IMG/VR virus record: IMGVR_UViG_3300020044_004491
Span: 1 to 31,965 of that record
Source of the DNA: a virus
Lineage: Duplodnaviria > Caudoviricetes
Reading direction: 5' to 3' (one strand)
DNA length: 31,965 bases
Under the pieces are notes generated by a model. That model did no database searches. It was not told the DNA's origin and saw only the letters and a list, made by a program, of their open reading frames with translations. Both the position numbers and the translations under genes were made by a program. Each line of letters starts with the position of its first letter. Position 1 is the stretch's first letter. Positions 2 through 24,478 of the stretch are shown piece by piece.

Positions 2-2662
2 GCTCTTGTAAATAACGAACGCAAAGTTGCTGCTGGAGCATTGGCTCAAAGTGGTTTGGGTAAAACTTTTGACAAAGAGACATTGAATGAAGTGATTCGT
101 TTGCGTCAAACTGCGGCCATGACAGGAACCCCTGTTGCATTAAATCCAACACAACAAGCCGCCGCTGATGCAATTGACAGAATATTTGATTACTTCTACG
201 ACTATGCAGCTAAAGCATCTGGTGGAACTGGATATGTCCCTCCACGTAGAACAAACTATTTCCCACAAATGCAATCTGACAAAGCAATTCGCTGGGCGCA
301 AAGGTTTCCTAAGAAAGCAGAGGAGCTTGCAAAGAAACTGAAGGTAGACCGTACTTGGTTTGTTGGAAACTTCCGTGCTCGTGACCTTTCTGTTGGCGAT
401 GAGTTCTTTGGCAAAGTACTTACACAGGCCGACATTGACGGTGGAGTTACTGCACTCAACAACATCGCCCGCAAATGGGGATTGGACTTTGATTACTTCG
501 ACACAGATGCATTAAGTGTTATTGGCAAGTATGCACAAAAGCACGCACAGTTTTCTGCATTACAGAAGACAATTGGTTCATTGCCTGAAACAATTCCAAG
601 CATGGCAGCGCGTAAAGCCGGAACGGAATTTCAGACTCCATTAGTAACATCACCTTTACCAAAGGGAACTGCACCCGGGTTCAGTCTTACTGACCCAGCA
701 ACTGGAATACAACTTGACCCAAGTGTAATCCTTGAACAGTTAAGCAAAGGTGAACTTAGTTCCCTCTTGGATGAAATCAAAACAATTACATCAAAAGTTG
801 ATGCAAGGTCTGTAAATAAAAAAGAAATTGAAACTCTTACTTCTCAATTAGATGCACGAATTGCAAAAATTGAAGATGATTTTATTAATGGTGTAATAAC
901 TCCAGCAACTGCAGCAGTAGCCACGGATGAAATTGTTAAACTTGCATCAACTATCCAAGGCGAACTTCAGGGTCTTGCCTTAGATATTGCTACTGTTCCA
1001 AAAACGAGATGGACAGAATATGCAGATATTGTTAAAAAAGGTTTTGAAATTCTTAACGATGACATCATTGACCCAACAACAGGAAATGTGCTGTATAAAG
1101 GCACAGCACCAGATATTGCTGTTCGTGAAGAGTTGGCAGACCTCCTTCGCAATGCAGAACGAGTCAAAGACCCAGAGTTTGCAGCACGAGCAAGACAGGT
1201 GGCACTTGACTACACACGATTCTCAAAGGCTTGGTTGACTGCTCGTCCCGGATTCCATACACGCAACGCATTAAGCAATACCTATCAACTTATTGCTGCA
1301 GGTGCTGACCCACGAAATCTTATTAGAGGAAACAAAATTCTTAATAAAATTAATGAAGGATTAAAAGCCGGTCTTACACCACGACAAATTGCTAAACGAT
1401 TGGTCGACAGTGGTTTTATCAAAGCAGTAGAAGTTGACCCGTTTAATCTACGTTTGGCAGACCCGATTGTAAACAGAGGTGAATTAATTGACGCAATTGA
1501 AGATTCAATTAACTACTCAGGCGCTACTGGATTTGGTCAGTATGGTGAAATTGCTGCTGAAGTTGGTACCGGAAACCGTGGACTACTTCTCAAAGGTGGT
1601 CCAGCAAACAAAGTTTCACGAGCAATTGGTTACATACCTCAAGGAAGCCGTTGGTTTGGAGAACAGATTGAAAGCTATTCACGTTTTGGTTTGATGTGGG
1701 ACGGTATTTCAAAGGGTCTTAGCCCACAAGAAGCAGCAGCGCGCGCAAATAAATACCTGATTGACTACGCAGACCTCAGCAATGTTGACAGAGTCGCTAA
1801 ACAAATCATTCCGTTCTGGACCTTTATGAGTCGCAACACACCATTGCAACTTGAATTGATGTGGACAAACCCACGTGCCTATGCGTTCTACAGCAACTTG
1901 AAGCGCAACATTGAAGGACCTTCAGAAGAAGAAGGTGGTCCAGTTATTCCAGGTTATGAAAAAGACCGTGGAGTGTTCTCTCTTGAGACTCCAATCAATA
2001 TTCCAGGGATGCCAGAATCTGTTAAGAATGCTGGACGATTTGCTGGTGCAGTTCCTGGTGTGGGTCCTGCTCTTGGTCTACTTTCACAATTCCCTGGTTT
2101 GCAGGGTGATGTAATTCGTCCAGGTCTTCCATTCCCAGGTGGTGGTGAAAACGTTCTTAAAGGACTAATCGAGAATCCAAAAGGATTCCTTGCAAGCACA
2201 AACCCTGTATTCCGTGTTCCGCTTGAAGCAGCATTTGGTGTCAAATTATTTACTGGTGCACCTATAGCTCCAAAGGGTGAAAAAACAACACAAACAAAAT
2301 CTCGTTTGATTTATCTTGGGCGAGAGTTGTTTTCACCAAGTTCACCACTTGTTGCTGTATTGAAATCAATAGAACCAGCAAGACAAAACAAATTCATTCA
2401 AGAGTATTTCGGTATTACTGAGGATGATGCAGAACCAGTTGTTCAAACTGTTAACTCAGTATTGTCGTTACTTGGATTGCCACTTGGGACACAACGCACA
2501 AAGTCTTCAGTCAATGAATTGCAAAGCAGATGGTTTGACCTTGAAGCGTATATCAAAGATGCTCAAGACCGTGCAAAAATTCAGATTGAAGAACAACAAA
2601 AGTCTGGACAAACACCAAGCACTGTCAATCCAGATGACCCATTGGGAATTTTAGGACCATGA
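2..2662 (+). CDS. Large internal virion/ejection protein (large polyvalent protein-like), 5'-truncated
   Basis: Frame is open from base 2 (the TTG at 41 is internal). Helical protein with C-terminal motifs (ARPGFHTRN, KYLIDYADLS..D....IIPFWTF) typical of the large injected proteins of podoviruses; last gene before the lysis-like cassette. Confidence 0.65.
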   Translation, partial: ALVNNERKVAAGALAQSGLGKTFDKETLNEVIRLRQTAAMTGTPVALNPTQQAAADAIDRIFDYFYDYAAKASGGTGYVPPRRTNYFPQMQSDKAIRWAQRFPKKAEELAKKLKVDRTWFVGNFRARDLSVGDEFFGKVLTQADIDGGVTALNNIARKWGLDFDYFDTDALSVIGKYAQKHAQFSALQKTIGSLPETIPSMAARKAGTEFQTPLVTSPLPKGTAPGFSLTDPATGIQLDPSVILEQLSKGELSSLLDEIKTITSKVDARSVNKKEIETLTSQLDARIAKIEDDFINGVITPATAAVATDEIVKLASTIQGELQGLALDIATVPKTRWTEYADIVKKGFEILNDDIIDPTTGNVLYKGTAPDIAVREELADLLRNAERVKDPEFAARARQVALDYTRFSKAWLTARPGFHTRNALSNTYQLIAAGADPRNLIRGNKILNKINEGLKAGLTPRQIAKRLVDSGFIKAVEVDPFNLRLADPIVNRGELIDAIEDSINYSGATGFGQYGEIAAEVGTGNRGLLLKGGPANKVSRAIGYIPQGSRWFGEQIESYSRFGLMWDGISKGLSPQEAAARANKYLIDYADLSNVDRVAKQIIPFWTFMSRNTPLQLELMWTNPRAYAFYSNLKRNIEGPSEEEGGPVIPGYEKDRGVFSLETPINIPGMPESVKNAGRFAGAVPGVGPALGLLSQFPGLQGDVIRPGLPFPGGGENVLKGLIENPKGFLASTNPVFRVPLEAAFGVKLFTGAPIAPKGEKTTQTKSRLIYLGRELFSPSSPLVAVLKSIEPARQNKFIQEYFGITEDDAEPVVQTVNSVLSLLGLPLGTQRTKSSVNELQSRWFDLEAYIKDAQDRAKIQIEEQQKSGQTPSTVNPDDPLGILGP

Positions 2663-3607: not shown

Positions 3608-3842
3608 AGTTTGCTAAAAAACCTTCAATATAATCAAACGAATCAATAACATCTTGGTCAGGGTCTTCGCTCTGTGAGTGGTACCAATGTTCAACCAAGT
3701 CCATGCACTGTTCATTGGTTAACGCAATGTTGACTATGAAGCCATTCTCATTGTCATAGATGATTCTGTCTGTTCTGTCGGCAAGGTCGTAGAGGTCATC
3801 CTCGGTGAATATCCTTTTTGCCCAACTCCACGAATCAATCAT
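3531..3842 (-). CDS. Acidic hypothetical protein (103 aa)
   Basis: Probable start MIDSWSWAK overlapping the stop of the upstream sigma-like gene; 3' end overlaps the transglycosylase convergently. Confidence 0.6.
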   Translation of the reverse strand: MIDSWSWAKRIFTEDDLYDLADRTDRIIYDNENGFIVNIALTNEQCMDLVEHWYHSQSEDPDQDVIDSFDYIEGFLANFIYFLQNYLEDEHSGWEERRYGIEE

Positions 3843-4200
3843 ACCTGAGTATCTTACTAATACGCCCATCAATGATAAGTACTTCTCCTAGATGGCGGTA
3901 GGCAATCTGTTTCAGTCTCCATGCATGTGTTGCAGATATGCCCATTCTTTGCCCTAACTCTTCATAGGTTATGCGCTCATAGTTGATGGAGTGTATTACA
4001 AATCTGTCTTGTTCCAATAGGACTTCGAGACAGTCAAGAACAATGTCTTGGACTTCACTAAATAAACATTTGTGTTTACGGGGCTCTTCAAATGGAGCCG
4101 CTTCCATTAGTGCTTGGTATTCGTTTTCTGGTTCGTAATTGGATAGCAAGTTCATGAGGTCGTCAACATCAATAGGGATTTCCCTCTTGCTGTAACTCAT
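3835..4200 (-). CDS. Sigma-70 region 4-like HTH protein
   Basis: L.EQDRFVI...YERITYEELGQRMGISATHAWRLKQIAYRHL matches the sigma region 4 pattern. Start placed at ATG 4200 (MSYSKREIP), just after the upstream peptide's stop. Confidence 0.75.
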   Translation of the reverse strand: MSYSKREIPIDVDDLMNLLSNYEPENEYQALMEAAPFEEPRKHKCLFSEVQDIVLDCLEVLLEQDRFVIHSINYERITYEELGQRMGISATHAWRLKQIAYRHLGEVLIIDGRISKILRYD

Positions 4201-4204
4201 TGAA

Positions 4205-4288
4205 CTAGAAAATTCCCAAGACATGGCCAATCACCAGAATAGCCAAACAAATAACAGAAAATTGCAATGCTCTATAAATGGAATTCAT
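4205..4288 (-). CDS. 27-aa single-TM peptide
   Basis: Strong AAGGAGG RBS; MNSIYRALQFSVICLAILVIGHVLGIF. Confidence 0.55.
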   Translation of the reverse strand: MNSIYRALQFSVICLAILVIGHVLGIF

Positions 4289-6306: not shown

Positions 6307-8062
6307 GTCGTGCTCCTTCGTAAAACTCTCTATCTGAGTTTACTACACCTGCTAGCACATCCGGCGCAACTTTATTGATTGTAACTGAATGCTCATGGAC
6401 ACAACGAGCCTTAGATGTAATCAGACACTTACGACCAGCATCAGTTACATGGTCAACCAGATGGTCGTCACCGTACCAAAGCTTGAGTTGTTCTGGGAAT
6501 CGGTAGCCAGTTAGGTCAGACGCCAGCATCATGGCAAAGCCACCCATTCCACCTGTGCCGTCATAGCGACCACGACAGGTATCTGTTACCACTCTGTCTT
6601 GTGCAAGAGGTGAGTACTGCGGGCAAATCAAACCAATTGAGTCGTCTCGGTCCAGTTCTGCCACCAAGTTGGTCACACAGTTCTCGTTCAGATACACATC
6701 GTCATTCAAGAACAACACATGATTACCAGTTTTGGATAAATTAAACCCAAAGTTCCATGCTTTGTGGATATTGAACTCACCAGAAGTCATCACTTTTTTT
6801 ACTTTTTTATCGTTTAAAGCATCGAGCCGGTCAAAAGCTTCCTGGCCATCACAAATAATGAAAATATTGTCAACTTTTGCATCATCGAGCAGCTGCGCAA
6901 CAACACGATACAAACCTGCGGTGTTGTCCCTCGTTGGAATGACCACATCAGCCATGCTCAAAGCGTTTTTATAAAAAAAGATGTTGTCCTTCAGCCGTTT
7001 ATCATCTGGCGCGTGTCCTAGGGCCTTATAGCCGTGTTCTAGGGCAATCTGGTGCCTACCTGTACGATGCGCCGCAATAGCCATGAGGTCATGAGGCAAC
7101 CAACCCCACGCTGCGGCTTCCGTTAAATACAAATCACCACGATTAGTCAGTGACAAGGCACGAGAAGCGGCGAAATAACAACCTTCCCAATGCCCAATGT
7201 CGTAGTAATGCTGTGCAAGGTCAACCCAGAGCTCTCGACCCCATGGATATTCACCACAACCACGAAGAAGCCACTTTTCACGCTCTTCAGGGACCTGTTT
7301 AGCAATAAAACGCATCGAGAAGGCACGTTCAGGTGCCCAAGTAGATGAAGGCATCAACAAATGACGCTTAAACATCTCCACGGATTCTTCTACACGGCCA
7401 TAGAACATCAGCTCACGGGCACAATAATAAACATTGCGGTCATTATCCGGGTTCTCTTCAACATCAAGCAACAAAAGAGGCAAATAAGAACTACGAGACT
7501 TCGTATTGTCAGCAAAATGGTAGATACGAAGCCCACAAAAACCTTGTAACTCTTGGTTTCCAGGCTGAGTGACGTTTACTTCATGGACTGCGTTCATCCA
7601 ACGATGAGAAAAGCGCCGCGTAATCTTGTCACCTTGATAAGTAAGACCAGGCTTACCGCGCGCAATAGTTCCCTGAATATCAATGGAACCATCATCCATA
7701 GGAATCATTGACTCCCAGTTCCATGTATAGACATACCGAGGACGGTTTACAGAACCATCGTTAGGCACAGCTTCAAGATGAGCGCGCCAACCATCACCAA
7801 GAACCTCGTCCACATCAAGGTTAATAATCCAATCAATGTCATCAGGTAGCATGTCAAGCAAGTGATTGCGCGCATTACCAAAATGCCATGGAACAATAGA
7901 AGCCTCAAGAACCGTCACACCACACTCTTGAGCTATGGCTATCGAGTCATCAGTAGACCCAGTATCAAGCAAATAGCGGTAATCAGCATCTTTAGCTGAA
8001 TCAGCCCATCTACGGATATGAGCAGACTCGTTTTTCATTATAGAAACTATTGCAACCTTCAT
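6299..8062 (-). CDS. Glycosyltransferase, GT2-TPR-GT2 architecture
   Basis: Start MKVAIVSIMKNE (ATGA overlap); DTGSTD, LDVDE, VHE; helical TPR-like middle; second GT-A domain (VVIPT, LFLNDDV, LWYGDD). Confidence 0.92.
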   Translation of the reverse strand: MKVAIVSIMKNESAHIRRWADSAKDADYRYLLDTGSTDDSIAIAQECGVTVLEASIVPWHFGNARNHLLDMLPDDIDWIINLDVDEVLGDGWRAHLEAVPNDGSVNRPRYVYTWNWESMIPMDDGSIDIQGTIARGKPGLTYQGDKITRRFSHRWMNAVHEVNVTQPGNQELQGFCGLRIYHFADNTKSRSSYLPLLLLDVEENPDNDRNVYYCARELMFYGRVEESVEMFKRHLLMPSSTWAPERAFSMRFIAKQVPEEREKWLLRGCGEYPWGRELWVDLAQHYYDIGHWEGCYFAASRALSLTNRGDLYLTEAAAWGWLPHDLMAIAAHRTGRHQIALEHGYKALGHAPDDKRLKDNIFFYKNALSMADVVIPTRDNTAGLYRVVAQLLDDAKVDNIFIICDGQEAFDRLDALNDKKVKKVMTSGEFNIHKAWNFGFNLSKTGNHVLFLNDDVYLNENCVTNLVAELDRDDSIGLICPQYSPLAQDRVVTDTCRGRYDGTGGMGGFAMMLASDLTGYRFPEQLKLWYGDDHLVDHVTDAGRKCLITSKARCVHEHSVTINKVAPDVLAGVVNSDREFYEGARHA

Positions 8063-8415
8063 TGTCGTGCCTTCCAGTCCTTCATTCGTGCCTTTTGACA
8101 TAGACGACAACGCCGCGAAAGATTGCCCTTGTTATCTACGTACGAATATACATTATCACCAATTAGCTCATGACCAAGCTTACAATGGGTAGCAACAGTG
8201 TCTTTCTTACGCCGTCCAGCCTTCTTTGGACCATCAGGCTTTACATACCCATCACACAAAGGATGAGTGCCCGCAAAAACCTTCTTCACTGTTCCAAGAG
8301 AAACCTCAAACACATGAGCAATGTCAGCATGAGTCATAGGACAATGAGTATCCTGATAAAACTCGTAGCATTCGAGCATTTCAATGACATCTTCTTTAGT
8401 AAGTTTCTGCACCAC
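8059..8415 (-). CDS. HTH DNA-binding protein with C-terminal zinc-finger-like domain
   Basis: THADIAHVFEVSLGTVKKV HTH; THCKLGH...N......RRCRLC motif. GTG start at 8415 or 8412. Confidence 0.75.
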   Translation of the reverse strand: MVQKLTKEDVIEMLECYEFYQDTHCPMTHADIAHVFEVSLGTVKKVFAGTHPLCDGYVKPDGPKKAGRRKKDTVATHCKLGHELIGDNVYSYVDNKGNLSRRCRLCQKARMKDWKARQ

Positions 8416-8418
8416 GAA

Positions 8419-8427
8419 AGAGTACCA
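8419..8427 (-). promoter_or_regulatory. Extended -10 promoter (TGgTACTCT), likely leaderless
   Basis: TG-n-TAnnnT 6 nt before GTG 8412; no SD present. Confidence 0.4.
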
Positions 8428-8931
8428 ATAAATGTCGCTCCACAGGGGAACTACAGCAAGGACGAGTCATACAACTAGACAGTGTCAAGTTCTGGCAAGG
8501 GAACAAGAAAACACTAAAAATAGAGCGAAATCTAGTACTAAACGCTTGCAAAAGGAAGCAGAAAGTATACAAGTGAAATACAAGTGAGAATAAGGGCATA
8601 ACTACTGCCCGTAATTGACCGCTGAGTTAATTAATTGCTGTCATTCTTGCTGTCTTCATGCAGCTGTTGCGTGCTTGTTGGTGTGTAATAGCTGGTTATC
8701 AACCTACGAGCAAGCTATCAAGTTAGTGATGACTTGCTTACTCGACTGTTCGGTGCACGACTACCTGGGACTGCCAGCTACTACACGTGTCTAGGCTACC
8801 ACACATTGATGCATAAAGGACTAAATACATGCGTGGAAGAAGTGATGATGTACTTGCTGTGTTGTTAGCTACATGCATATAGGCATATACACATACAGTC
8901 AGTCAGTTAGCTAGGTATGCAGTACACCTGA

Positions 8932-8986
8932 CCCCAGCCACCCCATACCCACCCCCCCCGGGTACCGTCAATTTGTATATATATAA
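8932..8986. other. C-rich tract with CCCGGGTACC and TA run; candidate pac site/genome terminus
   Basis: CCCC-AGCCA-CCCC-ATA-CCC-A-C8-GGGTACC followed by GTATATATATA, at the end of a long ORF-poor segment. Confidence 0.35.
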
Positions 8987-9009
8987 AGGGTAGGGAGCCG
9001 TGGTTACTT

Positions 9010-9120
9010 CTAAATACTTTGTATGCTACGAGTTTCTAGTTTGTAGTGTTGATGGCAGACACATTCTTTGTTTGGGCAGTAGTAGTAGGCGTCTTCGTTG
9101 TAGTCGTGGATGTTTTCCAT
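9010..9120 (-). CDS. 36-aa Cys/His peptide
   Basis: MENIHDYNEDAYYYCPNKECVCHQHYKLETRSIQSI with GGGG-type RBS. Confidence 0.45.
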   Translation of the reverse strand: MENIHDYNEDAYYYCPNKECVCHQHYKLETRSIQSI

Positions 9121-9169
9121 TTGTTTACCCCGTACCCTTGTTTTGTTAAGTACTAGTACTTTTTTTCTA

Positions 9170-9301
9170 CTACTTTTCTTCTGTTACTTCTGTGCTACCT
9201 GTTGTGAAGGCTGCTTCATAACCTGGGTAGTCTTGTAGTTTGTCGTTCTCGTCGAGTATGTAGGCGTGGTCACCGATGATTACTAACATTGAGTTGGTCA
9301 T
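9170..9301 (-). CDS. 43-aa acidic peptide, probably leaderless
   Basis: MTNSMLVIIGDHAYILDENDKLQDYPGYEAAFTTGSTEVTEEK; TATACT at 9308-9313, 6 nt before ATG. Confidence 0.55.
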   Translation of the reverse strand: MTNSMLVIIGDHAYILDENDKLQDYPGYEAAFTTGSTEVTEEK

Positions 9302-9429
9302 ATGTGCAGTATATACGCTCTAGTTGCTAACGCGGCCTAGTGGCGGCCCGTCGGCTTCGCCTCCTCCTCGCCTAGTGCCTTTGCTTCGCTTCGCTCGCAC
9401 AGCACGTGTTTTTATTTTCCTGTTAAAAG

Positions 9430-9458
9430 AAGAGAGAGAAGTTGCCAAGAGAGAGAAG
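9430..9458. repeat. Direct repeat AAGAGAGAGAAG x2
   Basis: Exact 12-mers at 9430-9441 and 9447-9458. Confidence 0.85.
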
Positions 9459-9725
9459 AAAAAACCCCCCCGCTGAACATCAACTTAAAAAGTTGGGGGA
9501 AGTCGTCAGCTAACTTGCCTGGCTAGGTTGCGCAACAGGGCTTGAATATTTTCTTCTCTTAAAAAAGCGGCAAGGCGACCCCGTTTGACGGTCTACATCC
9601 TCGGTTATATTTCCTGGCTACCCCGACTTTGTCGGCACCAGGGTTTCCCCGATAGAGCAGGATTCCCACCTGACACCACTGTTCACGCCGTGGTGGGCGA
9701 CACTTTCGTGCTAAGTGAAGTTGTG
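9455..9725 (-). ncRNA. Putative structured non-coding RNA (~270 nt)
   Basis: Directly downstream of a copy of the phage promoter motif; no credible ORF. Hairpins GCAC-GAAA-GUGU, CACCAC/GUGGUG, CAGG-UGGGAAU-CCUG, GGG-GAAA-CCC, CCGAC-AAA-GUCGG, CCGU-CAA-ACGG, CAACUU/AAGUUG; ends in G7-U6. Confidence 0.6.
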
Positions 9726-9726
9726 T

Positions 9727-9751
9727 TCTATAGTACAGCTTGTTTCATTAC
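9727..9751 (-). promoter_or_regulatory. Phage promoter motif copy driving putative ncRNA
   Basis: Minus strand reads GTAATG-AAACAAGCTGTACTA-TAGA. Confidence 0.65.
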
Positions 9752-9785
9752 ATGCGGCGCTAGTACTTGATATACCTGTGATATA

Positions 9786-9992
9786 TCACCGCTTACTATT
9801 TGAACGCTCCTTTGCGTACGAAATCAAGCTTGAGCAATCGTTGCGGCTCATGCCTTCAGTGTATGGAATACCAAGCTTTTTCATATATGCTAACTGCTTA
9901 GGCGTTGGCGCAATAAAAGGCTTTGGTTTCTTCTGCGTGTACGTGATGTATCGGTTTGATGGAAGACTGCGCTCCCAGTTCATTCGTGTCAT
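9786..9992 (-). CDS. Small basic hypothetical protein (68 aa)
   Basis: AAGGAG RBS; PTPKQLAYMKKLG...SRNDCSSLIS small helical motif. Confidence 0.75.
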   Translation of the reverse strand: MTRMNWERSLPSNRYITYTQKKPKPFIAPTPKQLAYMKKLGIPYTEGMSRNDCSSLISYAKERSNSKR

Positions 9993-10007
9993 GTCGTGCT
10001 CCTTGAA

Positions 10008-10490
10008 TTAAATCTTAGCTTGGTTCTTTCGCTTTTGGTAAGCCTTCTTGTTGTTTTCTTTAATTTTTTTTGGGTCTACATTCTTTTTGTATTGGCGCGA
10101 TACGGCACAAACAGAGCAGTCCTTGGCAATTCGATATTTGCCTTCATAAGAAAACGGCATTCCATGCCGACAATGGAGCTTCTTGTGGTTGTACTGGCGC
10201 TTCTTGGCGTTCCGGTCAGCCATGTTGTCTTCAACGGTTCCAAGAACTAGATGGTCTGGGCGGACACAAGCTGGGTTGTCACAGGTGTGTGTGACGTGTT
10301 TTCCCGTTGGCCACTCTCCGTGTTCAAGAAACCACGATACGCGGTGTGAGTATTCGGTCTTCAGGTTGATGCTGAATCGGCCATATCCGTTGTACAGCAG
10401 GTGTGCTTTCCACACCCAGCAGCCGTCGGTCTTATCTACTTTTTCCCAGAAACGTTCTTCTACTGGTCTAAGTGGTCGTTTACTTTTCAT
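10008..10490 (-). CDS. HNH endonuclease
   Basis: AGGAG RBS before MKSKRP; RFWEKVDK..GCWVW, HRVSW, HTCDNPACVRPDHL..GT..DN; C-terminal HCRHG...CSVC. Confidence 0.93.
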   Translation of the reverse strand: MKSKRPLRPVEERFWEKVDKTDGCWVWKAHLLYNGYGRFSINLKTEYSHRVSWFLEHGEWPTGKHVTHTCDNPACVRPDHLVLGTVEDNMADRNAKKRQYNHKKLHCRHGMPFSYEGKYRIAKDCSVCAVSRQYKKNVDPKKIKENNKKAYQKRKNQAKI

Positions 10491-10626
10491 TGTATTTCTC
10501 CTGTTCGTCGTGCCAATATTGTGCTTCTTCTTCTTCTGACCAGTTTGGTGGCCATGGTTCTCGTTCGATGCCTTCAAACGCATCTAGTGGAAATCCGTTA
10601 TTGATATACTCTTCGTGCTTACTCAT
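10480..10626 (-). CDS. 48-aa acidic peptide, probably leaderless
   Basis: MSKHEEYINNGFPLDAF...; TATGCT at 10634-10639, 7 nt before ATG. Confidence 0.55.
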   Translation of the reverse strand: MSKHEEYINNGFPLDAFEGIEREPWPPNWSEEEEAQYWHDEQEKYNEK

Positions 10627-10665
10627 ACCTGTTAGCATACACCATGTTGACGGTTTGTAGTGTAT

Positions 10666-10690
10666 GTAACGAAACAAACTTCTATATAGG
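10666..10690 (+). promoter_or_regulatory. Phage promoter motif upstream of terS
   Basis: GTAACG-AAACAAACTTCTATA-TAGG. Confidence 0.7.
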
Positions 10691-10718
10691 AACATTTTTA
10701 ATTTTCGGAGGGTAATAC

Positions 10719-11165
10719 ATGGCTGCAGCTTTATTGCTTACACAAGAGCAGGAAGCTTATTTGGCGTGGTTACTCACTCCTGAAGACCAACGTGAACCGG
10801 CAACTAAGCGTGCCTATGCAGATTCAAAGGAAATGCACGAGAACACGCTGCGCAGTTGGGAAAAGAAAAAGAACTTTATAGAACGGTGGAAGTTGGGTGT
10901 TGAAGGACTCAATCAATCACCAGAACGGACACAGAAGCTCTTGGATGCGCTTTATATAAAGGGAATCTCTGGCGATACAAAGTCGGCGGAGCTTTACCTG
11001 AAAGCTACTGGCAATATGCCTAATGCATCCACGTTGAATATCAAGACCGAAACTTCACTCCGTGATATATCAGACGAAGAACTGGAAAAGATGATTTTGG
11101 AACTTGGCGCTAAGCAAGTAAAGAAAGCTCCAGTCTTTCCAATGTCAATTACAGAGGCAAATTAA
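10719..11165 (+). CDS. Terminase small subunit (HTH type)
   Basis: GGAGG RBS; N-terminal HTH (KRAYAD..EMHENTLRSWEK), GDTKSAELYLKATG, DISDEELE; first gene of the structural arm. Confidence 0.7.
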   Translation: MAAALLLTQEQEAYLAWLLTPEDQREPATKRAYADSKEMHENTLRSWEKKKNFIERWKLGVEGLNQSPERTQKLLDALYIKGISGDTKSAELYLKATGNMPNASTLNIKTETSLRDISDEELEKMILELGAKQVKKAPVFPMSITEAN

Positions 11166-11518
11166 TGCGAGCACAATGGTCCGCGCCAGGCGGAAACACA
11201 CTTCAAGGGCGTAGTAATGCGCTCCAAGTACAAATCAACAACACGATTAAGCGCGCACTCAAAGAACAAAGCGACGCTCTATTAAACGACCACCAACAAG
11301 AAGACCTAATCAATGGTGGCGATGCTTCAACAACTCAGTTTCATTATCTTTTAGTTCCTAACACGACAGCAATGGGCGCATCTACTACAGCCGCTGGTGC
11401 ATTTGACGCAAACACAGGTGCAGCTGGTTCATTGACTCCTGCAGCAACAGCGTTTGGTACAGCACAATATGTATTTAAGACACGCAGAGATTTCCGTAAT
11501 TCAGGAAGAGGTTACTAA
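11165..11518 (+). CDS. Hypothetical virion protein
   Basis: 117 aa, TAATG coupled, Ala/Thr/Gly-rich. Confidence 0.65.
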   Translation: MRAQWSAPGGNTLQGRSNALQVQINNTIKRALKEQSDALLNDHQQEDLINGGDASTTQFHYLLVPNTTAMGASTTAAGAFDANTGAAGSLTPAATAFGTAQYVFKTRRDFRNSGRGY

Positions 11519-14128
<2,610 letters not shown>

Positions 14129-14137
14129 GGAGTAATC

Positions 14138-14491
14138 ATGGCTACATTTACGAAAGAAAAACTTTCAGCATCAACGAATGGTCGAGGAATAAAAGTTGCT
14201 GCCACTGCAAGCACTGGAACAACAATCCATCAGACTGGAACTGGCAACAAAGATGAAGTTTGGCTATACGCCTACAACTCTGCATCCACGCCACAATTAC
14301 TTACGATTCAATTTGGTGGAACAACAACAGTTGATGATGACATTAAATTGAACATTCCTGCACAAAGCGGATTAACACTTGTTGTTCCCGGATTGACTCT
14401 TGTTCCATCTGGTTCTGCTCTGACTGTTGCTGCATATGCTGCTACTACAAACGTGGTGACAATTCAGGGCTATGTGAACAGGATTAGTTAA
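14138..14491 (+). CDS. Small beta-rich virion/fibre-associated protein
   Basis: AAGGAG RBS; 117 aa inside fibre island. Confidence 0.7.
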   Translation: MATFTKEKLSASTNGRGIKVAATASTGTTIHQTGTGNKDEVWLYAYNSASTPQLLTIQFGGTTTVDDDIKLNIPAQSGLTLVVPGLTLVPSGSALTVAAYAATTNVVTIQGYVNRIS

Positions 14492-15378
14492 TGGCTAATC
14501 CAGTTAGAAGGAATCTTTCGTCAAGCCAAGTAGAAGAGTGGTTTGGTGCAAAATATATTTATATACCATCGCGTTCTGGTGCTGCTGTTGGTGTTGAATT
14601 TCTTATAGTTGCAGGTGGTGGAGGCGGTGGATACTCAACTGGTGGAGGTGGCGGAGCCGGTGGATACGTAGAAGGATATGCATACTTGCCAACAACCATC
14701 TCAATAACTGTTGGTGCTGGTGGAGCTGGTGCAACATCAACGGCAGTTGGAAGCAACGGTGGTAACTCTGTTCTTGCAGACATTGTCGCTTTTGGTGGAG
14801 GTGGAGGACCAACTGGTTCTGGAAACGGAAGAAACGGTGGTTCGGGTGGTGGTGGACCATGGCCCGGTTCAGATTTTCCTGGAAGAGCAACTCAATTAAA
14901 CCCATATGTTGGTTATGGATATGGAAATGATGGTGGTCAACCAACAGGTATTAACTATCGAGGAACTGGGGGCGGAGGAGCAGGAGCAGTAGGCCAAGAC
15001 GGTGGAACAAACGGTGGGGTTGGTGGAACTGGTGGAACTGGAAAATCATCAACAATTACTGGTTCAGCTGTAGATAGAGCTGGTGGCGGAGGAGCAGGAG
15101 CAATCTTCCAAACAGCTGGACCTGGCGGTACTGGTGGTGGAGGAGCTGGTTCAGCAACAACAACAGGTTCAAACGGAACAACAAACACAGGCGGTGGCGG
15201 TGGTGGAGGGACAAACGTTGCAAACGGTGGAACCGGTGGCTCAGGAATAGTTATTATTAAATTTAGAGACACGTTGACAGCAACGGTATCTCCTGGTTTG
15301 ACACAAACAAACTCATCTTCTGGTGGATTTAGAATCTATTCATTTACTGCTGGCACAGGGACGGTGGCATTCGCATAA
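14491..15378 (+). CDS. Glycine-rich (polyglycine) fibre/adhesin protein
   Basis: VEFLIVAGGGGGG...GGGGAGG, many Gly runs, GGSGIVIIK ending. Confidence 0.8.
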   Translation: MANPVRRNLSSSQVEEWFGAKYIYIPSRSGAAVGVEFLIVAGGGGGGYSTGGGGGAGGYVEGYAYLPTTISITVGAGGAGATSTAVGSNGGNSVLADIVAFGGGGGPTGSGNGRNGGSGGGGPWPGSDFPGRATQLNPYVGYGYGNDGGQPTGINYRGTGGGGAGAVGQDGGTNGGVGGTGGTGKSSTITGSAVDRAGGGGAGAIFQTAGPGGTGGGGAGSATTTGSNGTTNTGGGGGGGTNVANGGTGGSGIVIIKFRDTLTATVSPGLTQTNSSSGGFRIYSFTAGTGTVAFA

Positions 15379-15716
15379 TGGCACATTACGCATTTTTAGA
15401 CGAAAGCAATATTGTCACCGAGGTGATTGTCGGTCGCAACGAAGATGAAGTTGTAGATGGAATTGACAATTGGGAGGCTTACTATGCTTCCATGCGTGGA
15501 CAACGTTGTGTAAGAACTTCATATAATGGAAATATCCGAAAACAATTTGCTGGTATTGGTTTTAAGTATGACGAAGTAGCAGATGTTTTTGTTTGTCCAT
15601 CTATTTATTCATCGTGGACTCTTGATGAAAACCACGATTGGCAACCACCAACACCGATGCCAGCAGAAGGTATTTGGCGTTGGAATGAAGAAACACTTTC
15701 TTGGATTGAGGTTTAA
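15378..15716 (+). CDS. Fibre-associated protein, possible assembly chaperone
   Basis: MAHYAFLDE.NIVTEVIVG...TSYNGNIRKQFAGIG...WQPPTPMP...W.WNEETLSW; follows the Gly-rich fibre gene. Confidence 0.65.
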   Translation: MAHYAFLDESNIVTEVIVGRNEDEVVDGIDNWEAYYASMRGQRCVRTSYNGNIRKQFAGIGFKYDEVADVFVCPSIYSSWTLDENHDWQPPTPMPAEGIWRWNEETLSWIEV

Positions 15717-15718
15717 CC

Positions 15719-16684
15719 ATGGCAACAATTAATTTCCCAACATCTCCAACAAACGGTCAGGTTTTTACCGACGGCGACCATACTTGGGTATTTAGTTCTG
15801 TCGGTGCAGGTGGACCTGGTGCGTGGAAATTAGAGGCACAAACAGTTACTGGTCCAACAGGTCCAGCAGGTCCAATTACCTCAAAAAACATGATGGTAAA
15901 TGGCAACTTTGATATATGGCAACGAAATACTTCAACATCAACCAATCTTGCATATTCTGCTGACCGTTGGTTTATTAACACCAATGGAACAGCAACAGCT
16001 ACATTTTCAAGAATTGATGTATCAGCACAAGGTGTTGGCTCTCGATATGGAGCACGAGTTGCCAGAAGTGCTGGTACAGATATTTTTGGAATCATTACTT
16101 GCCAAGAAGGCGCTTTAGGAACTGTTAATAAATCAGTAACTTTGAGTGGGTATATTCGCAAGGGTTCTGGATTGACTTCTGATGTTTCTATTGCTTTCGG
16201 AACTCGTGCATCAAAATTTGGCACTGTATACGATTCTGCGAACATCACAATTGCAAATGCAACAATGTCTACAAGCACTTGGTACAGATTCAGCACCACA
16301 ATGTCTGTAACTACTTCTACTTCAACGAATAGTGCAGACATTTTTGAAATTGAAGCTATTGCGTTATCGCAAGCAGGTGGGGCAAACGTTCATTTTGAAC
16401 TTGCTTCAGTACAGCTTGAAATTGGCACTACAGCTAGTGAATTTGAACAAGAAGACCAGAGTCTTACGCTTCTTCGTTGCAAGCGTTATTATCAAACAGC
16501 AGCTACATATGTGCAAACAAGCACGACTGCAGTTACGTGGATTTTTCCTGTTGAAATGAGAGTTAATCCAGTAGTTGCTGGTGGAGGAACTGGTTTCACT
16601 ATTGATGGTGCTTCTACAACTGTTGGAAACTGGTATCAAACTACTCGTGCTAAACAGACACTAACTTTGGAAGCTGATTTCTAA
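15719..16684 (+). CDS. Tail fibre with carbohydrate-binding-like domain
   Basis: FPTSPTNGQ N-terminus, short collagen, NMMVNGNFDIWQR...VQLEIG..ASEFE...LLRCKRYYQ...FPVEMR. Confidence 0.8.
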   Translation: MATINFPTSPTNGQVFTDGDHTWVFSSVGAGGPGAWKLEAQTVTGPTGPAGPITSKNMMVNGNFDIWQRNTSTSTNLAYSADRWFINTNGTATATFSRIDVSAQGVGSRYGARVARSAGTDIFGIITCQEGALGTVNKSVTLSGYIRKGSGLTSDVSIAFGTRASKFGTVYDSANITIANATMSTSTWYRFSTTMSVTTSTSTNSADIFEIEAIALSQAGGANVHFELASVQLEIGTTASEFEQEDQSLTLLRCKRYYQTAATYVQTSTTAVTWIFPVEMRVNPVVAGGGTGFTIDGASTTVGNWYQTTRAKQTLTLEADF

Positions 16685-16758
16685 TGTCAACATATTTGAA
16701 TACATACACTACGACCAGTATTCTTGGTCTACAATTAAATAACAATCAGGAGGAATAA
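16684..16758 (+). CDS. 24-aa bridging ORF
   Basis: TAATG overlaps at both ends; MSTYLNTYTTTSILGLQLNNNQEE. Confidence 0.4.
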   Translation: MSTYLNTYTTTSILGLQLNNNQEE

Positions 16759-17063
16759 TGCCATCAGCAGAACAGACAGCAGCACTTGAAGCTCGTAGAG
16801 CAGAAGTGGCTCAATACCAACAGAACATCAGCACCTTCCAGACAATTCTTGCAACCCTTCCAAACGAATTGCCAGAACGCCTTCAGGGTTTCCGTGCTCG
16901 CACTGACCGTCACGCAGCAGCAGGAGAAATCGAAAATCTCGATGACGTTGCTCTTGTTTCAGACGTATGGTTCTATGACGAACTTCAGGGTCGCGTGCGT
17001 TCAGAAACAGTTGAAATGCGCAAAGCAGCAGCAATTCTTGCTGTTCTTGAAGCACAAGCTTAA
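16758..17063 (+). CDS. Helical hypothetical protein (possible fibre chaperone)
   Basis: AGGAGG RBS; 101 aa, coiled-coil-like. Confidence 0.7.
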   Translation: MPSAEQTAALEARRAEVAQYQQNISTFQTILATLPNELPERLQGFRARTDRHAAAGEIENLDDVALVSDVWFYDELQGRVRSETVEMRKAAAILAVLEAQA

Positions 17064-17071
17064 GGAGAACC

Positions 17072-17593
17072 ATGATTGACTTTCCGTCGTCACCAGTTAA
17101 TGGGCAGACGTTTACATCAGGTGATTTCACATGGGTGTATTCTTCGTCTGTCGGCGGATGGAATCTTGTAACAACAACCGTTACTGGTCCAACTGGTCCA
17201 ACTGGTTTTACAGGACCTACTGGTCCAGCAGGTTCAGCTTCTAGCACAGGAGCTACTGGTCCTACAGGTGCTGATGGTTCAACGCTTGTTATTAATGCAC
17301 AATCTGGAACGACTTATTCATTTGTTCTTTCAGATTCTGCAAAAATGGTTTCATTTAATAACTCATCAGCGCAAACAGTAACTGTTCCGTTGAACTCATC
17401 ACAAGCATTTGCAATCGGAACTCAAATAAACATTATTCAACTCGGCACAGGACAAGTAACACTTGTTGGTGCAGGTGGAGTAACAGTCAACTCATCTCAA
17501 GGACTAAAGTTGCGTAGTCAATATTCAGTTGCATCTTTGTTTAAAGGCGCTACAGATACTTGGTATGTGAGTGGTGACACGGTAGTTTCGTAA
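17072..17593 (+). CDS. Short collagen-containing fibre adaptor protein
   Basis: FPSSPVNGQ N-terminus, GPT repeats, C-terminal domain homologous to that of 29950..30519. Confidence 0.8.
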   Translation: MIDFPSSPVNGQTFTSGDFTWVYSSSVGGWNLVTTTVTGPTGPTGFTGPTGPAGSASSTGATGPTGADGSTLVINAQSGTTYSFVLSDSAKMVSFNNSSAQTVTVPLNSSQAFAIGTQINIIQLGTGQVTLVGAGGVTVNSSQGLKLRSQYSVASLFKGATDTWYVSGDTVVS

Positions 17594-18702
17594 TGCGTGT
17601 TTTTGGCACTCCAGCATCAATAGATGTTCAAGCATCTGTGTGGAAAATGTTTTTAACATCCAATACAACGGATACTGGTTTTGTGCCAATCCAGTATTGG
17701 GGTTACAAGTGGAACCGAATGTATGAGGGTTATGGAACTTTACTTTCAGATGCTACTGGTTCTACGTGGAGTAGCGTTTCTGGACCAGGTCAACTAAATC
17801 AATCTTTTACAATTAGTCCACAAAATAATTATCTAGGCAATACGTCTGGTTCAGGTACAGCAACTATACGTGCAAGAGCAAGACCATTTATTAAATCTGG
17901 TTTATTTGAGGGACCGGGTACTACTTTTTTAAGTTTCCCACAACTTGGAACAACAACTCCAGTTCAAATATTATGGAACAATAATGAAGATGCTGTATTT
18001 TGGTCAAGGAATGTTTCTCCATATATTTATGCAGCAACATTTTCTCCATCTGGGTGGGGAACTCTTTATGCAAACCCAGTTACCGCATCACCAAGCAGTG
18101 GACCAATAGATGTAAACCTTGCAACAAATGATGTTGCCCTTCAAACTCCAACTGGTGGTGGAATATCAGCGATTAATGCTTGGACATTTTCAACATCAAC
18201 TGGATGGGGGACAAAACTTTCAGACCCTGCAGCTGGATTCCCAACAGCATCATCCAATAAACCAGCGTTTACTAAAAACGGTGATGCAATTGTGTGCCAT
18301 GGGACTAATAGTCCATATGTGTTTGTATATCCATGGATTGCTGGTCTTGGTTTTGGAACAAAATATGCAGACCCAGCAGCAACTCTCAACGGTGTTACTT
18401 ATTCAAATTGGAACCCAGCACAAACAGTACTTGGATTAGTAGCCAATACTACCGGAATTAATACAGCATTTTATAGGTGGTCTAACTCAACTGGTTGGGG
18501 TACACAATACTCACCACAATCATCAATTGCTTTAACTGCATCATGGTCTCCAGATGGCAAATCTGTTGGTGGTGGAAGTTTAGGAACGGATACATTAACC
18601 TATCGTTGGGATGATACAACAGGTTTTGGCACACAGTATTCAAACCCAGTACAACCTATAGGCTCAGATGTTTCTTATGCGTATGGATTTTTCTCAAATT
18701 AA
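17593..18702 (+). CDS. Beta-propeller-like repeat protein (putative receptor-binding)
   Basis: At least five ~45-aa repeats containing G(W/F)GTx(Y/L)xxP. Confidence 0.7.
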   Translation: MRVFGTPASIDVQASVWKMFLTSNTTDTGFVPIQYWGYKWNRMYEGYGTLLSDATGSTWSSVSGPGQLNQSFTISPQNNYLGNTSGSGTATIRARARPFIKSGLFEGPGTTFLSFPQLGTTTPVQILWNNNEDAVFWSRNVSPYIYAATFSPSGWGTLYANPVTASPSSGPIDVNLATNDVALQTPTGGGISAINAWTFSTSTGWGTKLSDPAAGFPTASSNKPAFTKNGDAIVCHGTNSPYVFVYPWIAGLGFGTKYADPAATLNGVTYSNWNPAQTVLGLVANTTGINTAFYRWSNSTGWGTQYSPQSSIALTASWSPDGKSVGGGSLGTDTLTYRWDDTTGFGTQYSNPVQPIGSDVSYAYGFFSN

Positions 18703-18717
18703 ATACCGAAGGAAAAA

Positions 18718-20310
18718 ATGGAATTCAATGACCTCGTAAACGAGTACAACTTTAGAAAATGCCGTGGTCCAGAAGAAGCAGATGTAGAACAACTTGTAGA
18801 AGCATTTGAGTTCTTCTGTGCTAACTACGTTTATATCAAGCATCCAAGTCGTGGACGAATTGAATTTGAGTTACGACCAGCACAGATAGCAACTGTTCGA
18901 GCATGGCTTGGACACAGAAACACAATTGTTCTTAAAGCACGTCAGATTGGCTTTTCTACTCTTGCTGCCGCTTTTGCATTTTGGCTAGCTTTTTTCTGGC
19001 CAGACCGCTTTGTCGTCATGCTTTCTAAGACCGAGCGTGAAGCCGCCAAGCTTCTGTCTAAAGCCAAGTACATCTATAAGTTCATGCCACGATGGATGCA
19101 ATTAGCTGGTCCTGAACTACTCCAGAACAACGTGCTTAAAATGGCGTTTGATAACGACTCTGTTATTGAGTCTTTGCCGTCAGCAAACGAACCTGCTCGT
19201 GGTGAATCCGTATACCTAGCCATCATTGACGAGATGGCGTTCTTGCCAAACCCAGAACAGGCTTGGGCATCTATTGAACCTATTGCTGACGTTGGTGGTC
19301 GTGTTATTTGTTTGTCCACGGCTAAAGGCGAAGGCAACATCTTCTACACCTTGTGGCACGGGTCACAGACAGGAACCAACCGATTCCATGGCATCTTCTT
19401 TCCGTGGTCAGCAAACGGAGACCGTGACCAATCTTGGTATGACGCGCAGGCTCTTGAACTTCCACCATGGCAGTTGCACCAAGAGTACCCTTCAAACCCA
19501 GAAGAAGCCTTTATCCGTTCTGGTCGCCCAGTATTTGACATTGATTCACTAAACCGTTTTGAGATAGAACGCCCAAAAACAGGGTTCAACAGGAAGTCTT
19601 CCGATGTGAGGAATGCATTCATGTTTGAGTCTTCTGGTGGACCCTTGTCCATCTGGCGTTTACCTGAATTTGGGGCAACGTACACGATTGGTGCTGACGT
19701 GGCAGAAGGACTTGCTCGTGGAGACTATTCCACAGCCCATGTGATTGACGCCAAGTCTGGACTTGTGGTTGCCCACTGGCACGGACACATTGACCCAGAC
19801 AAGTTTGGGGAAGACATCCTGTACTCCCTTGGATACTTCTATAACGAAGCCCTGATTGGTGTTGAATCAAACAACCACGGTTTAACTACCCTGACAGCCC
19901 TGAATCGCGCAAACTACAGCAACCTGTATCGCCAGCGCCGATTGAACCAGAGAAACCCAGAGCAAACGGAACAGCTTGGTTGGAGAACCACATCGCTGAC
20001 AAAGCCGTTAGCTATTGACGAACTGAGCGCCAATATTAGAGATGGGGTGTTGCAGATTATGTGCGAATACACCATTGCTGAACTCAAGACCTTCGTCCGA
20101 GACGACAACGGCTCCATGCATGGCTCACCCCATGACGACAGGGTTATGAGCCTTGCCATTGCCAACCAGATGCTGAAGTATGTCTGGCTTGCCGAGTACC
20201 GCCCAAAGACAGACGCTCCGTTTGGAACCCTGAACTACTTTGCGTCCAAGCTCAAGAAGCCGACCAAGGAACGAGAGCGCTACATGATTGGGGAGTTCAA
20301 TTCCTACTAG
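18718..20310 (+). CDS. terL: Terminase large subunit
   Basis: VLKARQIGFST Walker A, AIIDEMAF Walker B, LSTAKG, IGADVAEG..GDYS, VESN, HDDRVMS nuclease motifs. Confidence 0.97.
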   Translation: MEFNDLVNEYNFRKCRGPEEADVEQLVEAFEFFCANYVYIKHPSRGRIEFELRPAQIATVRAWLGHRNTIVLKARQIGFSTLAAAFAFWLAFFWPDRFVVMLSKTEREAAKLLSKAKYIYKFMPRWMQLAGPELLQNNVLKMAFDNDSVIESLPSANEPARGESVYLAIIDEMAFLPNPEQAWASIEPIADVGGRVICLSTAKGEGNIFYTLWHGSQTGTNRFHGIFFPWSANGDRDQSWYDAQALELPPWQLHQEYPSNPEEAFIRSGRPVFDIDSLNRFEIERPKTGFNRKSSDVRNAFMFESSGGPLSIWRLPEFGATYTIGADVAEGLARGDYSTAHVIDAKSGLVVAHWHGHIDPDKFGEDILYSLGYFYNEALIGVESNNHGLTTLTALNRANYSNLYRQRRLNQRNPEQTEQLGWRTTSLTKPLAIDELSANIRDGVLQIMCEYTIAELKTFVRDDNGSMHGSPHDDRVMSLAIANQMLKYVWLAEYRPKTDAPFGTLNYFASKLKKPTKERERYMIGEFNSY

Positions 20311-20315
20311 ACTAG

Positions 20316-20340
20316 GTAATGGTTTTGCCTTACTTATAGG
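20316..20340 (+). promoter_or_regulatory. Phage promoter motif downstream of terL
   Basis: GTAATG-GTTTTGCCTTACTTA-TAGG. Confidence 0.65.
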
Positions 20341-20346
20341 AGATTT

Positions 20347-20568
20347 ATGCATTGTTCGACATGTTCAAAGCCAATTGAGGCAGAAAATGACTTAAAACGT
20401 GGTCGTTGCTTCAAATGTCACGTAAAAAACGTGCGATTGGGTTTTACTCATGGAAAAGAAGAGTTTCATGGTCCAACAATTCGTGAGCGCCAAAGAGAGA
20501 TGGAAGATTCTCCTCGGTTTAAAGCCGGAGAAATAGAGAAGGTTCCGGCTCGCCGGGAATTAATCTGA
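20347..20568 (+). CDS. Small zinc-finger protein
   Basis: CSTC...CFKC; AGGAG RBS. Confidence 0.75.
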   Translation: MHCSTCSKPIEAENDLKRGRCFKCHVKNVRLGFTHGKEEFHGPTIRERQREMEDSPRFKAGEIEKVPARRELI

Positions 20569-20759
20569 TGGAGTGGATTGTCCCAATTGTTGTTGCCATT
20601 ATTGGCGGACCACTAGTTGTTGTAATCCAACTGTTGAGGAAAGAAAACACTGAACAACATGCAGAGGCAAGGGCGCTTTTGAACCAAGTTGCTGAAAAAG
20701 TAGACAAAGTTGATACAAAACTTGATGGCCATATCCAATGGCATTTGGAGTTGAAATGA
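20568..20759 (+). CDS. Single-TM plus coiled-coil protein (holin-like)
   Basis: WIVPIVVAIIGGPLVVVIQLL followed by heptads ending KLDGHIQWH. Confidence 0.7.
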   Translation: MEWIVPIVVAIIGGPLVVVIQLLRKENTEQHAEARALLNQVAEKVDKVDTKLDGHIQWHLELK

Positions 20760-20923
20760 AAAAAAGAATTAGAGAAGCAGCAAAACCTGTTGTTAAGTCT
20801 GCGAAGAGTGTCAAGAAAATAGATGTGCCTGCTGAGAAGCAAGCAAAGAAGGACGCCACAAAAGCGGCAAAGTATCAAAAGCCAAAAGAGAAGCCAAAGC
20901 CTAAGAGCAAGGACAAAAAGTAA
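20756..20923 (+). CDS. Small Lys-rich protein (55 aa)
   Basis: ATGA overlap, MKKRIREAAK... Confidence 0.65.
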   Translation: MKKRIREAAKPVVKSAKSVKKIDVPAEKQAKKDATKAAKYQKPKEKPKPKSKDKK

Positions 20924-21159
20924 TGAAGAAGCCAAAGTTTGGAATTGTCATAGCGGTTGGTAAGTCACCAATGGGTGAGGCTTACAAGAAAGCCGTTGGC
21001 AAGTACGCATCAGAGGAAAAAGGTGAAGGTCCAAAACCAAAAATGCCTGTCGCCCCAAAAGGCGAAAAGGACATGGGTCCTAAGAGCAGAACTCCTATTG
21101 CTCCAAAAGGTGAAAAAGACAAAGGACCAAAGCCTCGTCGTTCAGGAAAGCAGCTCTAA
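20923..21159 (+). CDS. Small Lys/Pro-rich protein with internal repeat
   Basis: GPK...P(V/I)APKGEKD twice. Confidence 0.7.
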   Translation: MKKPKFGIVIAVGKSPMGEAYKKAVGKYASEEKGEGPKPKMPVAPKGEKDMGPKSRTPIAPKGEKDKGPKPRRSGKQL

Positions 21160-21329
21160 TGAAAAAGCCAACCAAAGCTCAGAAAAAAGTTGAGAAAGTA
21201 ATGCGTGAGTACAAGAAGGGTGACCTTCGCTCAGGTTCAAAAAAGGGTCCAGTAGTAAAGAGTCGTGAGCAAGCAATTGCAATCGCTCTGTCAGAAGCCA
21301 ATCAATCAGTTAAAGGAAAGAAGAAATAA
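21159..21329 (+). CDS. DUF6496-like small basic protein (56 aa), missed by ORF track
   Basis: TAATG overlap; KVEKVMREYKKGDLRSGSKKGPVVKSREQAIAIALSEA. Confidence 0.85.
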   Translation: MKKPTKAQKKVEKVMREYKKGDLRSGSKKGPVVKSREQAIAIALSEANQSVKGKKK

Positions 21330-21331
21330 CC

Positions 21332-24457: not shown

Positions 24458-24478
24458 TGAAATGGATTACTATATAGG
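24454..24478 (+). promoter_or_regulatory. Phage promoter motif upstream of scaffold/capsid
   Basis: GTAATG-AAATGGATTACTATA-TAGG. Confidence 0.7.

Follow-up and report, generated by a model that had tools for sequence, protein, structure and literature searches.

A covarying structured RNA beside a pyrimidine mirror repeat in small phages, a candidate RNA-primed replication origin

ColE1 and the T4 origin oriF both prime replication from persistent RNA-DNA hybrids (PMC5043065, PMC3016281). In ColE1, which has no encoded initiator, the hybrid formed by the 550-nt RNA II is trimmed by RNase H and primes Pol I (PMC5043065). At T4 oriF and oriG a phage promoter is followed by a downstream unwinding element, and the transcript serves as primer (PMC3016281). 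A different type of structure, the H-DNA triplex, requires a homopurine/homopyrimidine mirror repeat, and AT-rich repeats can form it near neutral pH (PMC11667243). H-DNA is known chiefly as an obstacle; in prokaryotes, few such motifs have come to light (PMC4666352). The raiA motif RNA (RF03072) resembles the RNA described here in its similar size and its two pseudoknots (PMC10861870) but is found in bacterial chromosomes rather than in a phage, and RF03072 gave no match to our locus at E <= 10.

The phage locus shares features with these systems. Like RNA II, it specifies a promoter-driven folded non-coding RNA that ends near a G-run, and no initiator was recognised by PHROGs or Pfam among genes that include many ORFs without a family. 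The phage RNA is shorter (about 270-400 nt) and has two pseudoknots, a T-loop and a mirror repeat, which ColE1 lacks. The absence of significant sequence similarity to RNA II and, by eye, of a conserved antisense RNA or RNA I-like promoter counts against a common mode of action. As at the T4 origins, there is a phage promoter motif, and the T-rich tract beyond it is a putative unwinding element. T4 R-loops, however, do not depend on a specific sequence and are served by a replisome of the phage, whereas in the present phages the fold of the RNA is conserved and genes for a replisome were not recognised. The likeness to H-DNA lies in an AT-rich homopyrimidine mirror repeat; the difference is that the repeat is short (13-17 nt arms), covaries between phages and is tied to an RNA with a matching purine tract. 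We propose, at a probability of about one half, that the RNA and the mirror repeat form a cis-acting, protein-free, RNA-primed origin working like ColE1 RNA II, in which a persistent hybrid is inferred by analogy.

The window, the 31,965-nt phage record analysed here at its full length, is 85% complete by CheckV. The plus strand encodes the large terminase, portal, scaffold, capsid and collagen-like tail fibres, and the minus strand encodes RusA, glycosyl- and methyltransferase, HNH and sigma region-4-like genes. The RNA site is the non-coding region separating these two gene arms. An HTH gene at 10719-11165 (plus strand; PF13022 at E 1e-4, below the cut-off) is probably small-terminase-like, judging from its position and domain. 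It is not part of the RNA and was used as a marker for locating the same slot in relatives. A sigma-70 region-4-like gene at 3835-4230 (minus strand; PF04545 at E 9.6e-5, below the cut-off), present in 9 of 10 related records, encodes a candidate reader of the GTAA promoters described below. Two relatives encode WhiB (PF02467, E about 1e-14), a marker of phages of Actinobacteria (PMC10914622), and the hosts are therefore likely to be Actinobacteria.

A preliminary description of the window had reported a repeated phage promoter pointing into a structured RNA on the minus strand. The motif, GTAA(Y)-N~15-ATAG at 9728-9752 (minus), is common to the small-terminase-like and capsid operons: besides the copy at -9752, copies were confirmed at +10665 before the small-terminase-like gene and at +24453 before scaffold and capsid, with a looser one near +26370. 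The position of the motif puts the estimated RNA start near 9724. No minus-strand ORF of at least 60 aa lies within 9455-9751, where frames of 24-36 aa exist. A search of 22 homologue 5' ends with loose patterns placed a GTAA-type motif upstream of 15 and TGn-TAnnnT upstream of 9 (either motif, 19). The palindrome GTGATATATCAC at 9778-9789, upstream of the promoter, has counterparts at a similar place in many relatives and is a possible operator. Another promoter-like motif, with a 15-nt spacer, lies on the plus strand at 9585-9611 and would direct transcription antisense into the first ~105 nt of the RNA, as RNA I would; it was seen in the window alone and by eye is not conserved.

Five river metatranscriptome runs (X1, X2, X5, X6 and X7) each yielded one contig within 9507-9707 that differed from the window by 0-2 letters (one also by a 1-nt gap) at a depth of 2.7-4. 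These runs had been picked for holding part of 8600-10800, and their five study codes possibly represent one campaign. Pieces of the capsid operon, which carries the same promoter motif, were also present in the 4 runs compared over a longer stretch, and run X3, which is probably DNA, covered only 8600-8781. No meaning attaches to those parts of 7001-27000 that no contig covered. Contigs carry no strand, ends or level of RNA; the assignment to the minus strand is suggested by the promoter and by the GNRA and T-loop motifs.

Homologues of the RNA were taken from loci around the marker gene with an iterated DNA profile. Profile matches at E < 1e-3 comprised 36 de-duplicated stretches (the window and 35 others), every one lying on the strand that does not carry the marker gene. 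A single-sequence search added four looser types (L047, L021, G010/L193 and L012), in which some of the motifs can be made out by eye. A sequence-only model found no new family member beyond a weak match to L197, while a first exact pattern and the 68-aa neighbouring protein used as queries returned near-identical copies only. A pattern for the second domain matched 46 loci, one of them a known homologue, and a 3' pattern gave 11 matches, 5 of them unrelated. No homologue of the RNA, of the marker or of the OB-fold protein introduced below was found in cultured phages, and none of the RNA in plasmids, where blastn gave only 36-nt chance matches; the 3 pattern matches in GTDB genomes were not real. 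The 68-aa protein (9786-9992, minus strand) has a T.KQ motif, and its relatives lie near the slot in loci of both the RNA and the OB type.

The RNA constitutes an uncatalogued structured family that is conserved and covarying. At the gathering threshold, Rfam 15 gave no match on the window (the lowest E on 8500-10100 was 4.8), none at the RNA in 10 homologue loci and 0 in 145 kb of relatives, and ARAGORN detected 0 tRNA or tmRNA genes. Together with the covariation and the RNA-library contigs, these negatives uphold the earlier view of a promoter-driven structured phage RNA outside known families. Resemblances to group I, RNase P and hammerhead RNAs had no Rfam support. Group I introns have the core order P3-P7 with an invariant G-binding pair, and here the candidate G-site pair takes G-C, G-U and A-U. 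Homology to RNA II was not significant: the profile run against NC_001371 placed its best match in the RNA II 3' region at E 2.5. Searches of the non-subscription literature turned up no description of the RNA or of a triplex-linked phage origin. In the searched part of the supplement of Fremin et al. (PMC10690425), one RNA motif and several identifiers are absent; an anonymous listing there is possible.

From 5' to 3', the predicted fold consists of pseudoknot 1, the T-loop hairpin, a long helix with an A-rich internal loop, a conserved small hairpin, a U-run, the purine tract R, another hairpin, pseudoknot 2 (or an alternative fold) and the G7 run, all on the minus strand. The 5' domain (9674-9719) has a closing stem (9719-9715/9686-9682), a GAAA hairpin (9711-9700) and a hairpin at 9698-9687. 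In pseudoknot 1 the loop 9695-9690 pairs with 9679-9674, with two-sided change at 3 of 4 pairs and 73% pairing in the raw MAFFT alignment. The hairpin at 9658-9672 (3 of 3 pairs with two-sided change, 86% paired) carries a 7-nt loop that we take to be T-loop-like. A core helix (9652-9649/9604-9601) with the conserved A-rich internal loop spans 9601-9652; its outer helix is misregistered by MAFFT (65% paired). The middle helix (9642-9638/9617-9613) is topped by a cap hairpin (9635-9623) and all 6 of its pairs change on both sides. Invariant or near-invariant columns mark 9561-9591, which holds the most conserved hairpin (CC-loop-GG, 9591-9581), a small CG hairpin (9577-9568) and the U-run; pairing in the two hairpins is 80% and 97%. 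Finally, the 3' domain (9465-9539) combines a hairpin at 9539-9518, an inner hairpin at 9495-9481 and pairing of 9502-9496 with the G7 run at 9471-9465. Pseudoknot 2, or an alternative fold, would join 9510-9506 to 9476-9472 within this domain. A GCCGA-containing loop recurs in the 5' domains of L046, L219, L217, L229, L160, L032 and L211; that of the window (9636-9628) is in a different helix than in most homologues.

Covariation was counted on raw MAFFT alignments for helices that we chose from the same sequences. For 48 named pairs in 17 sequences, 80.9% of cells were paired compared with 71.2 ± 0.8 after shuffling, and two-sided change affected 27 pairs (17.5 ± 2.4 shuffled) and 74 cells (28.8 shuffled); 0 of 500 shuffles reached either level, and the covariation exceeded all slid controls. 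The 3' domain, in 21 sequences, was 85.7% paired (73.1 ± 1.3 shuffled; 0 of 500) with two-sided change at 12 of 19 pairs. Since the helices were chosen from related sequences, these controls overstate significance, yet the margins are large and different pair types recur.

Every motif listed in the preliminary description is present in the sequence where it had been placed. Covariation supports its CACCAC/GUGGUG stem, as a pseudoknot, together with the T-loop hairpin and the CCUGG/CCAGG helix. Its GGG-GAAA-CCC hairpin is not conserved (28.9% paired), and its GCAC-GAAA-GUGU hairpin, while present, falls in a region that aligns poorly across homologues. The long-range CUUGCC/GGCAAG pair stays complementary (78-91% paired) but has few two-sided changes, and these last three helices combined did no better than shuffles (42 of 500). 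Missing from the description were the pseudoknot of the 3' domain, the tract R and the mirror repeat, which starts in the U-run, and it gave no function.

The RNA did not fold more stably than expected by chance. The MFE was -81.4 kcal/mol compared with -83.0 ± 5.0 for shuffled sequences (z 0.31), no 60-120-nt segment of the window had a z below -1.9, and z was below -2 on the minus strand for just 1 of 7 homologues, the window being among the 7. The preliminary description had staked its RNA, among other things, on folding energy and on conservation or covariation of the stems; the former failed it and the latter held (0 of 500). The weak folding energy is the argument for there being no functional RNA at all, only a single-stranded DNA structure or chance. 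We consider this barely credible in view of the covariation, the promoter motif at most 5' ends and the RNA-library contigs, and we let conservation and covariation overrule the energies. It is highly improbable that the RNA is a new ribozyme, self-cleaving or derived from group I, that makes a defined end. The compact pseudoknots would suit one, as would the core helix with its A-rich loop, which by eye resembles group I P4-P5. No Rfam ribozyme or intron matched, however, the candidate G-site pair varies, whole domains are missing in subfamilies, and 17 sequences share only 5 invariant columns.

Directly after G7, in a U-run, begins a perfect pyrimidine mirror repeat (9425-9462, minus strand; 16+6+16) made up of Y1 (9462-9447), a 6-nt centre and Y2 (9440-9425). 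It is the homopurine/homopyrimidine mirror repeat that H-DNA requires. No other mirror repeat in the window has arms of at least 8, and 30 local shuffles reached at most 9. Control loci of unrelated phages, 138 kb in all, contained 0 with arms of at least 10. Of 22 homologues examined, 18 have a mirror repeat, 1-98 nt past the G-run and with 13-17 matching positions. Y2 mirrors its own Y1 better than the Y1 of other phages (12.7 vs 8.7), which means that the arms covary, and the symmetry extends into the loop-proximal 6 nt (5.93 vs 4.95 of 6 among 14 distinct types; p 5e-5). As these positions are mostly outside the reach of R, their mirror partner is probably the purine strand of the template DNA. 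The arms are 79% T, and CC occurs in 0 of 14 left arms compared with 5.3 expected (two arms were mis-centred). Adjacent protonated cytosines destabilise pyrimidine triplexes. The repeat thus bears the signature of a triplex (H-DNA), whose formation is predicted. L030 and L214 have a second perfect 14-nt pyrimidine mirror repeat about 100 nt past the first. In L228 an imperfect purine mirror follows the G-run on the RNA strand instead of a pyrimidine one, and a hairpin takes the place of R.

The purine tract R (9549-9560, minus strand) is complementary to the first 11 nt of Y1, and across homologues to the first 8-12 nt of the first arm. The longest match of R was 9.6 nt to its own Y1 and 7.9 nt to the Y1 of other phages (18 loci, 0 of 100000 permutations). 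A matching R is likewise missing from those 4 of the 22 homologues that have no mirror. Whole subfamilies (the L016, L047 and L021 types) have the RNA with neither R nor mirror, which weakens the generality of the proposed origin; A+T-rich DNA follows the L016- and L047-type RNAs. ENE and MALAT1-type 3' triple helices offer a likeness in that their U-rich strands could clamp an A-rich tract, but here the purine tract lies inside the RNA and is shorter than the mirror.

Past the mirror repeat, a G+C-rich stretch (9320-9415, minus, the non-template strand) contains DNA mini-hairpins with GNA loops. In 16 loci, of which 8 had any, 14 such hairpins were on the RNA strand compared with 2 on the other strand and 4.1 expected. 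The stretch may be a primosome-loading site. In G010 the promoter, RNA, G-run, mirror and hairpins are all inverted as one.

The slot next to the marker gene holds either the RNA or a gene for an OB-fold protein. Among 58 de-duplicated loci with at least 1200 nt upstream of the marker gene (shorter ones were dropped), 29 had the RNA only (25 by profile and 4 by looser single-sequence match), 24 the OB-fold gene only, none both and 5 neither. The last group includes L167, which is G010 with its RNA further off, L187, which ends inside the 5' part of the RNA, and three others. On the marker tree the slot changed state at least 9 times, and identical marker proteins occur in both states. Of the 8 records at least 90% complete, 2 have the OB gene without the RNA and the other 6 carry the RNA. 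The two may exclude each other because they use one recombination slot, and not because they do the same job. The OB-fold family (L275:14851-15279, L273:16914-17372 and 28 more loci) has an aromatic C-terminal beta domain. Its genes are sometimes two in tandem, and the 6-mer repeats of the leader are clade-specific. G009, a 47.8-kb record with two marker genes and two OB genes, is duplicated or chimeric.

The OB protein (model pLDDT 86.7) folds like single-strand-binding OB domains. Among PDB structures its best matches were tRNA-synthetase anticodon-binding domains, followed by RPA/CST and SSBs, and named viral models matched were mostly SSBs; it had no PDB sequence match, and its Atlas feature scores were below 0.9. 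With anticodon-binding domains as best matches, RNA binding is equally open. Iterated 6-mers are frequent in the leader (as many as 15 copies; p <= 0.03 for 12 of 31 stretches tested), and the gene with its leader resembles, by analogy, an initiator beside iterons.

These matches bear on a reading in which the RNA acts in trans, as a stable decoy or tRNA mimic against host defence or as a protein scaffold, with the OB protein doing the same anti-host job and R, Y1 and Y2 forming an all-RNA triple helix that guards the 3' end. The T-loop and pseudoknots suit a free folded RNA, the RNA was recovered in RNA libraries, and the 8-12 nt of Y1 matched by R are where a terminated transcript would end. 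Even so, we regard this as unlikely: the mirror symmetry extends past the positions with a partner in R, the downstream DNA hairpins are strand-biased and were inverted along with the RNA, the RNA lacks a tRNA shape, and replication would be left unexplained.

Searches with PHROGs and Pfam recognised no polymerase, primase, helicase or initiator family in the 45 ORFs of the window. In five complete relatives, 62 of the 93 further ORFs without a window match were searched (the other 31 were short, duplicated or in the virion block) and contained no replication family, nor did 23 of 23 new ORFs of at least 100 aa in eight more records. A replicase could be hidden among the many ORFs to which no family was assigned. 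An 873-aa ORF without a family lies in the virion block (41-2662, plus strand) and is 1288-1625 aa in complete relatives. Of 12 normally oriented genomes, 11 had the higher keto skew at four-fold sites on the strand that carries the module; the two inverted genomes ranked lowest of 14. The skew carries little weight, because the shift is confined to small-arm genes and the genomes are related.

The origin reading is drawn from the lack of a recognised replication family, the RNA-or-OB slot and the covarying mirror and R. RNA polymerase would start at the 9752 promoter, the RNA would fold while being made, and transcription would pause at G7/Y1. The mirror repeat would then form a pyrimidine-purine-pyrimidine triplex on the template purine strand, its third strand being either the displaced DNA arm (H-DNA) or the transcript's folded-back copy of Y2. 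U-rich RNA-DNA hybrids are weak, and the triplex would keep the duplex open despite this. Pairing of R with Y1 on the displaced DNA strand could provide a second anchor; alternatively, R could pair with Y1 on the RNA's own tail, giving release or 3' protection. The 3' end, retained or trimmed by RNase H, would serve host Pol I as a primer. At the downstream hairpins, PriA-type proteins of the host would bring the replisome onto the displaced strand. In its most specific form, a protein-free phage origin at which a triple helix locks the folded RNA onto its own gene, the proposal is tentative and rather doubtful. There the mirror arms of the transcript, or the displaced DNA arm, would clamp the template purine strand, the internal purine tract would grip the other strand or release the RNA, and phages would exchange the RNA for a small module built on the OB-fold protein. 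Such an origin would be an instance of a triplex that evolution selected to start replication.

Further considerations count against the RNA-primed origin. The promoter also drives virion genes, which suggests late timing, and a triplex just ahead of the primer end would block polymerases (PMC11667243). The late-type promoter, this risk of blocking and the tRNA-synthetase-like matches of the OB protein keep weight on the trans-acting reading and on one in which the locus is a packaging or late-control element, either prohead-RNA-like or a triplex roadblock terminator that shields a genome-end site. The latter would fit the promoter shared with the terminase-like and capsid operons, the adjoining small-terminase-like gene, the stalling of RNA polymerase by H-DNA (PMC11667243, PMC4538819) and a short hairpin seen by eye before Y1 in many homologues. 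We think it quite unlikely, as the large terminase and the portal of the phage are normal, identical marker proteins are found whether or not the RNA is present, and some homologues have the TGn-TAnnnT motif instead. An origin that the RNA merely opens, where the duplex is unwound by transcription and H-DNA and the primer comes from host primase, would share the slot and gene-content evidence with an RNA-primed one. Weak U-rich hybrids and the A+T-rich tracts that replace the mirror in other subfamilies would suit it. It would leave the conserved two-pseudoknot fold and the R-Y1 match unexplained, and we consider it very unlikely.

If true, the RNA-primed origin would account for replication in a widespread group of small phages, likely of Actinobacteria, whose replication genes are not recognisable. 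With mirror arms that covary across phages, a useful role for H-DNA can be put to a direct test in a cloned fragment of 450 bp. Should the origin reading be wrong, the locus still offers an RNA family of several domains, so far uncatalogued, whose natural variants can serve structural work, and a slot in which a gene for an RNA and a gene for a protein can replace each other.

Further elements were seen in these genomes. A second RNA type, apparently promoter-driven and structured, with a terminator-like hairpin at its end, occurs at L270:12206-12375, L273:17731-17896 and in other relatives. It accompanies both RNA-type and OB-type slots, is absent from the window and has no Rfam match. A TTGCGGC-like motif is present in many copies on both strands of the control regions of G003, G004, G005 and G010. 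At 8930-8965 of the window, GGTACC is followed by a G-rich tract and purine-pyrimidine alternating DNA, an arrangement kept in relatives. Just before this stretch, which is a possible packaging or end site, falls the assembly break of G004, a terminal-repeat record.
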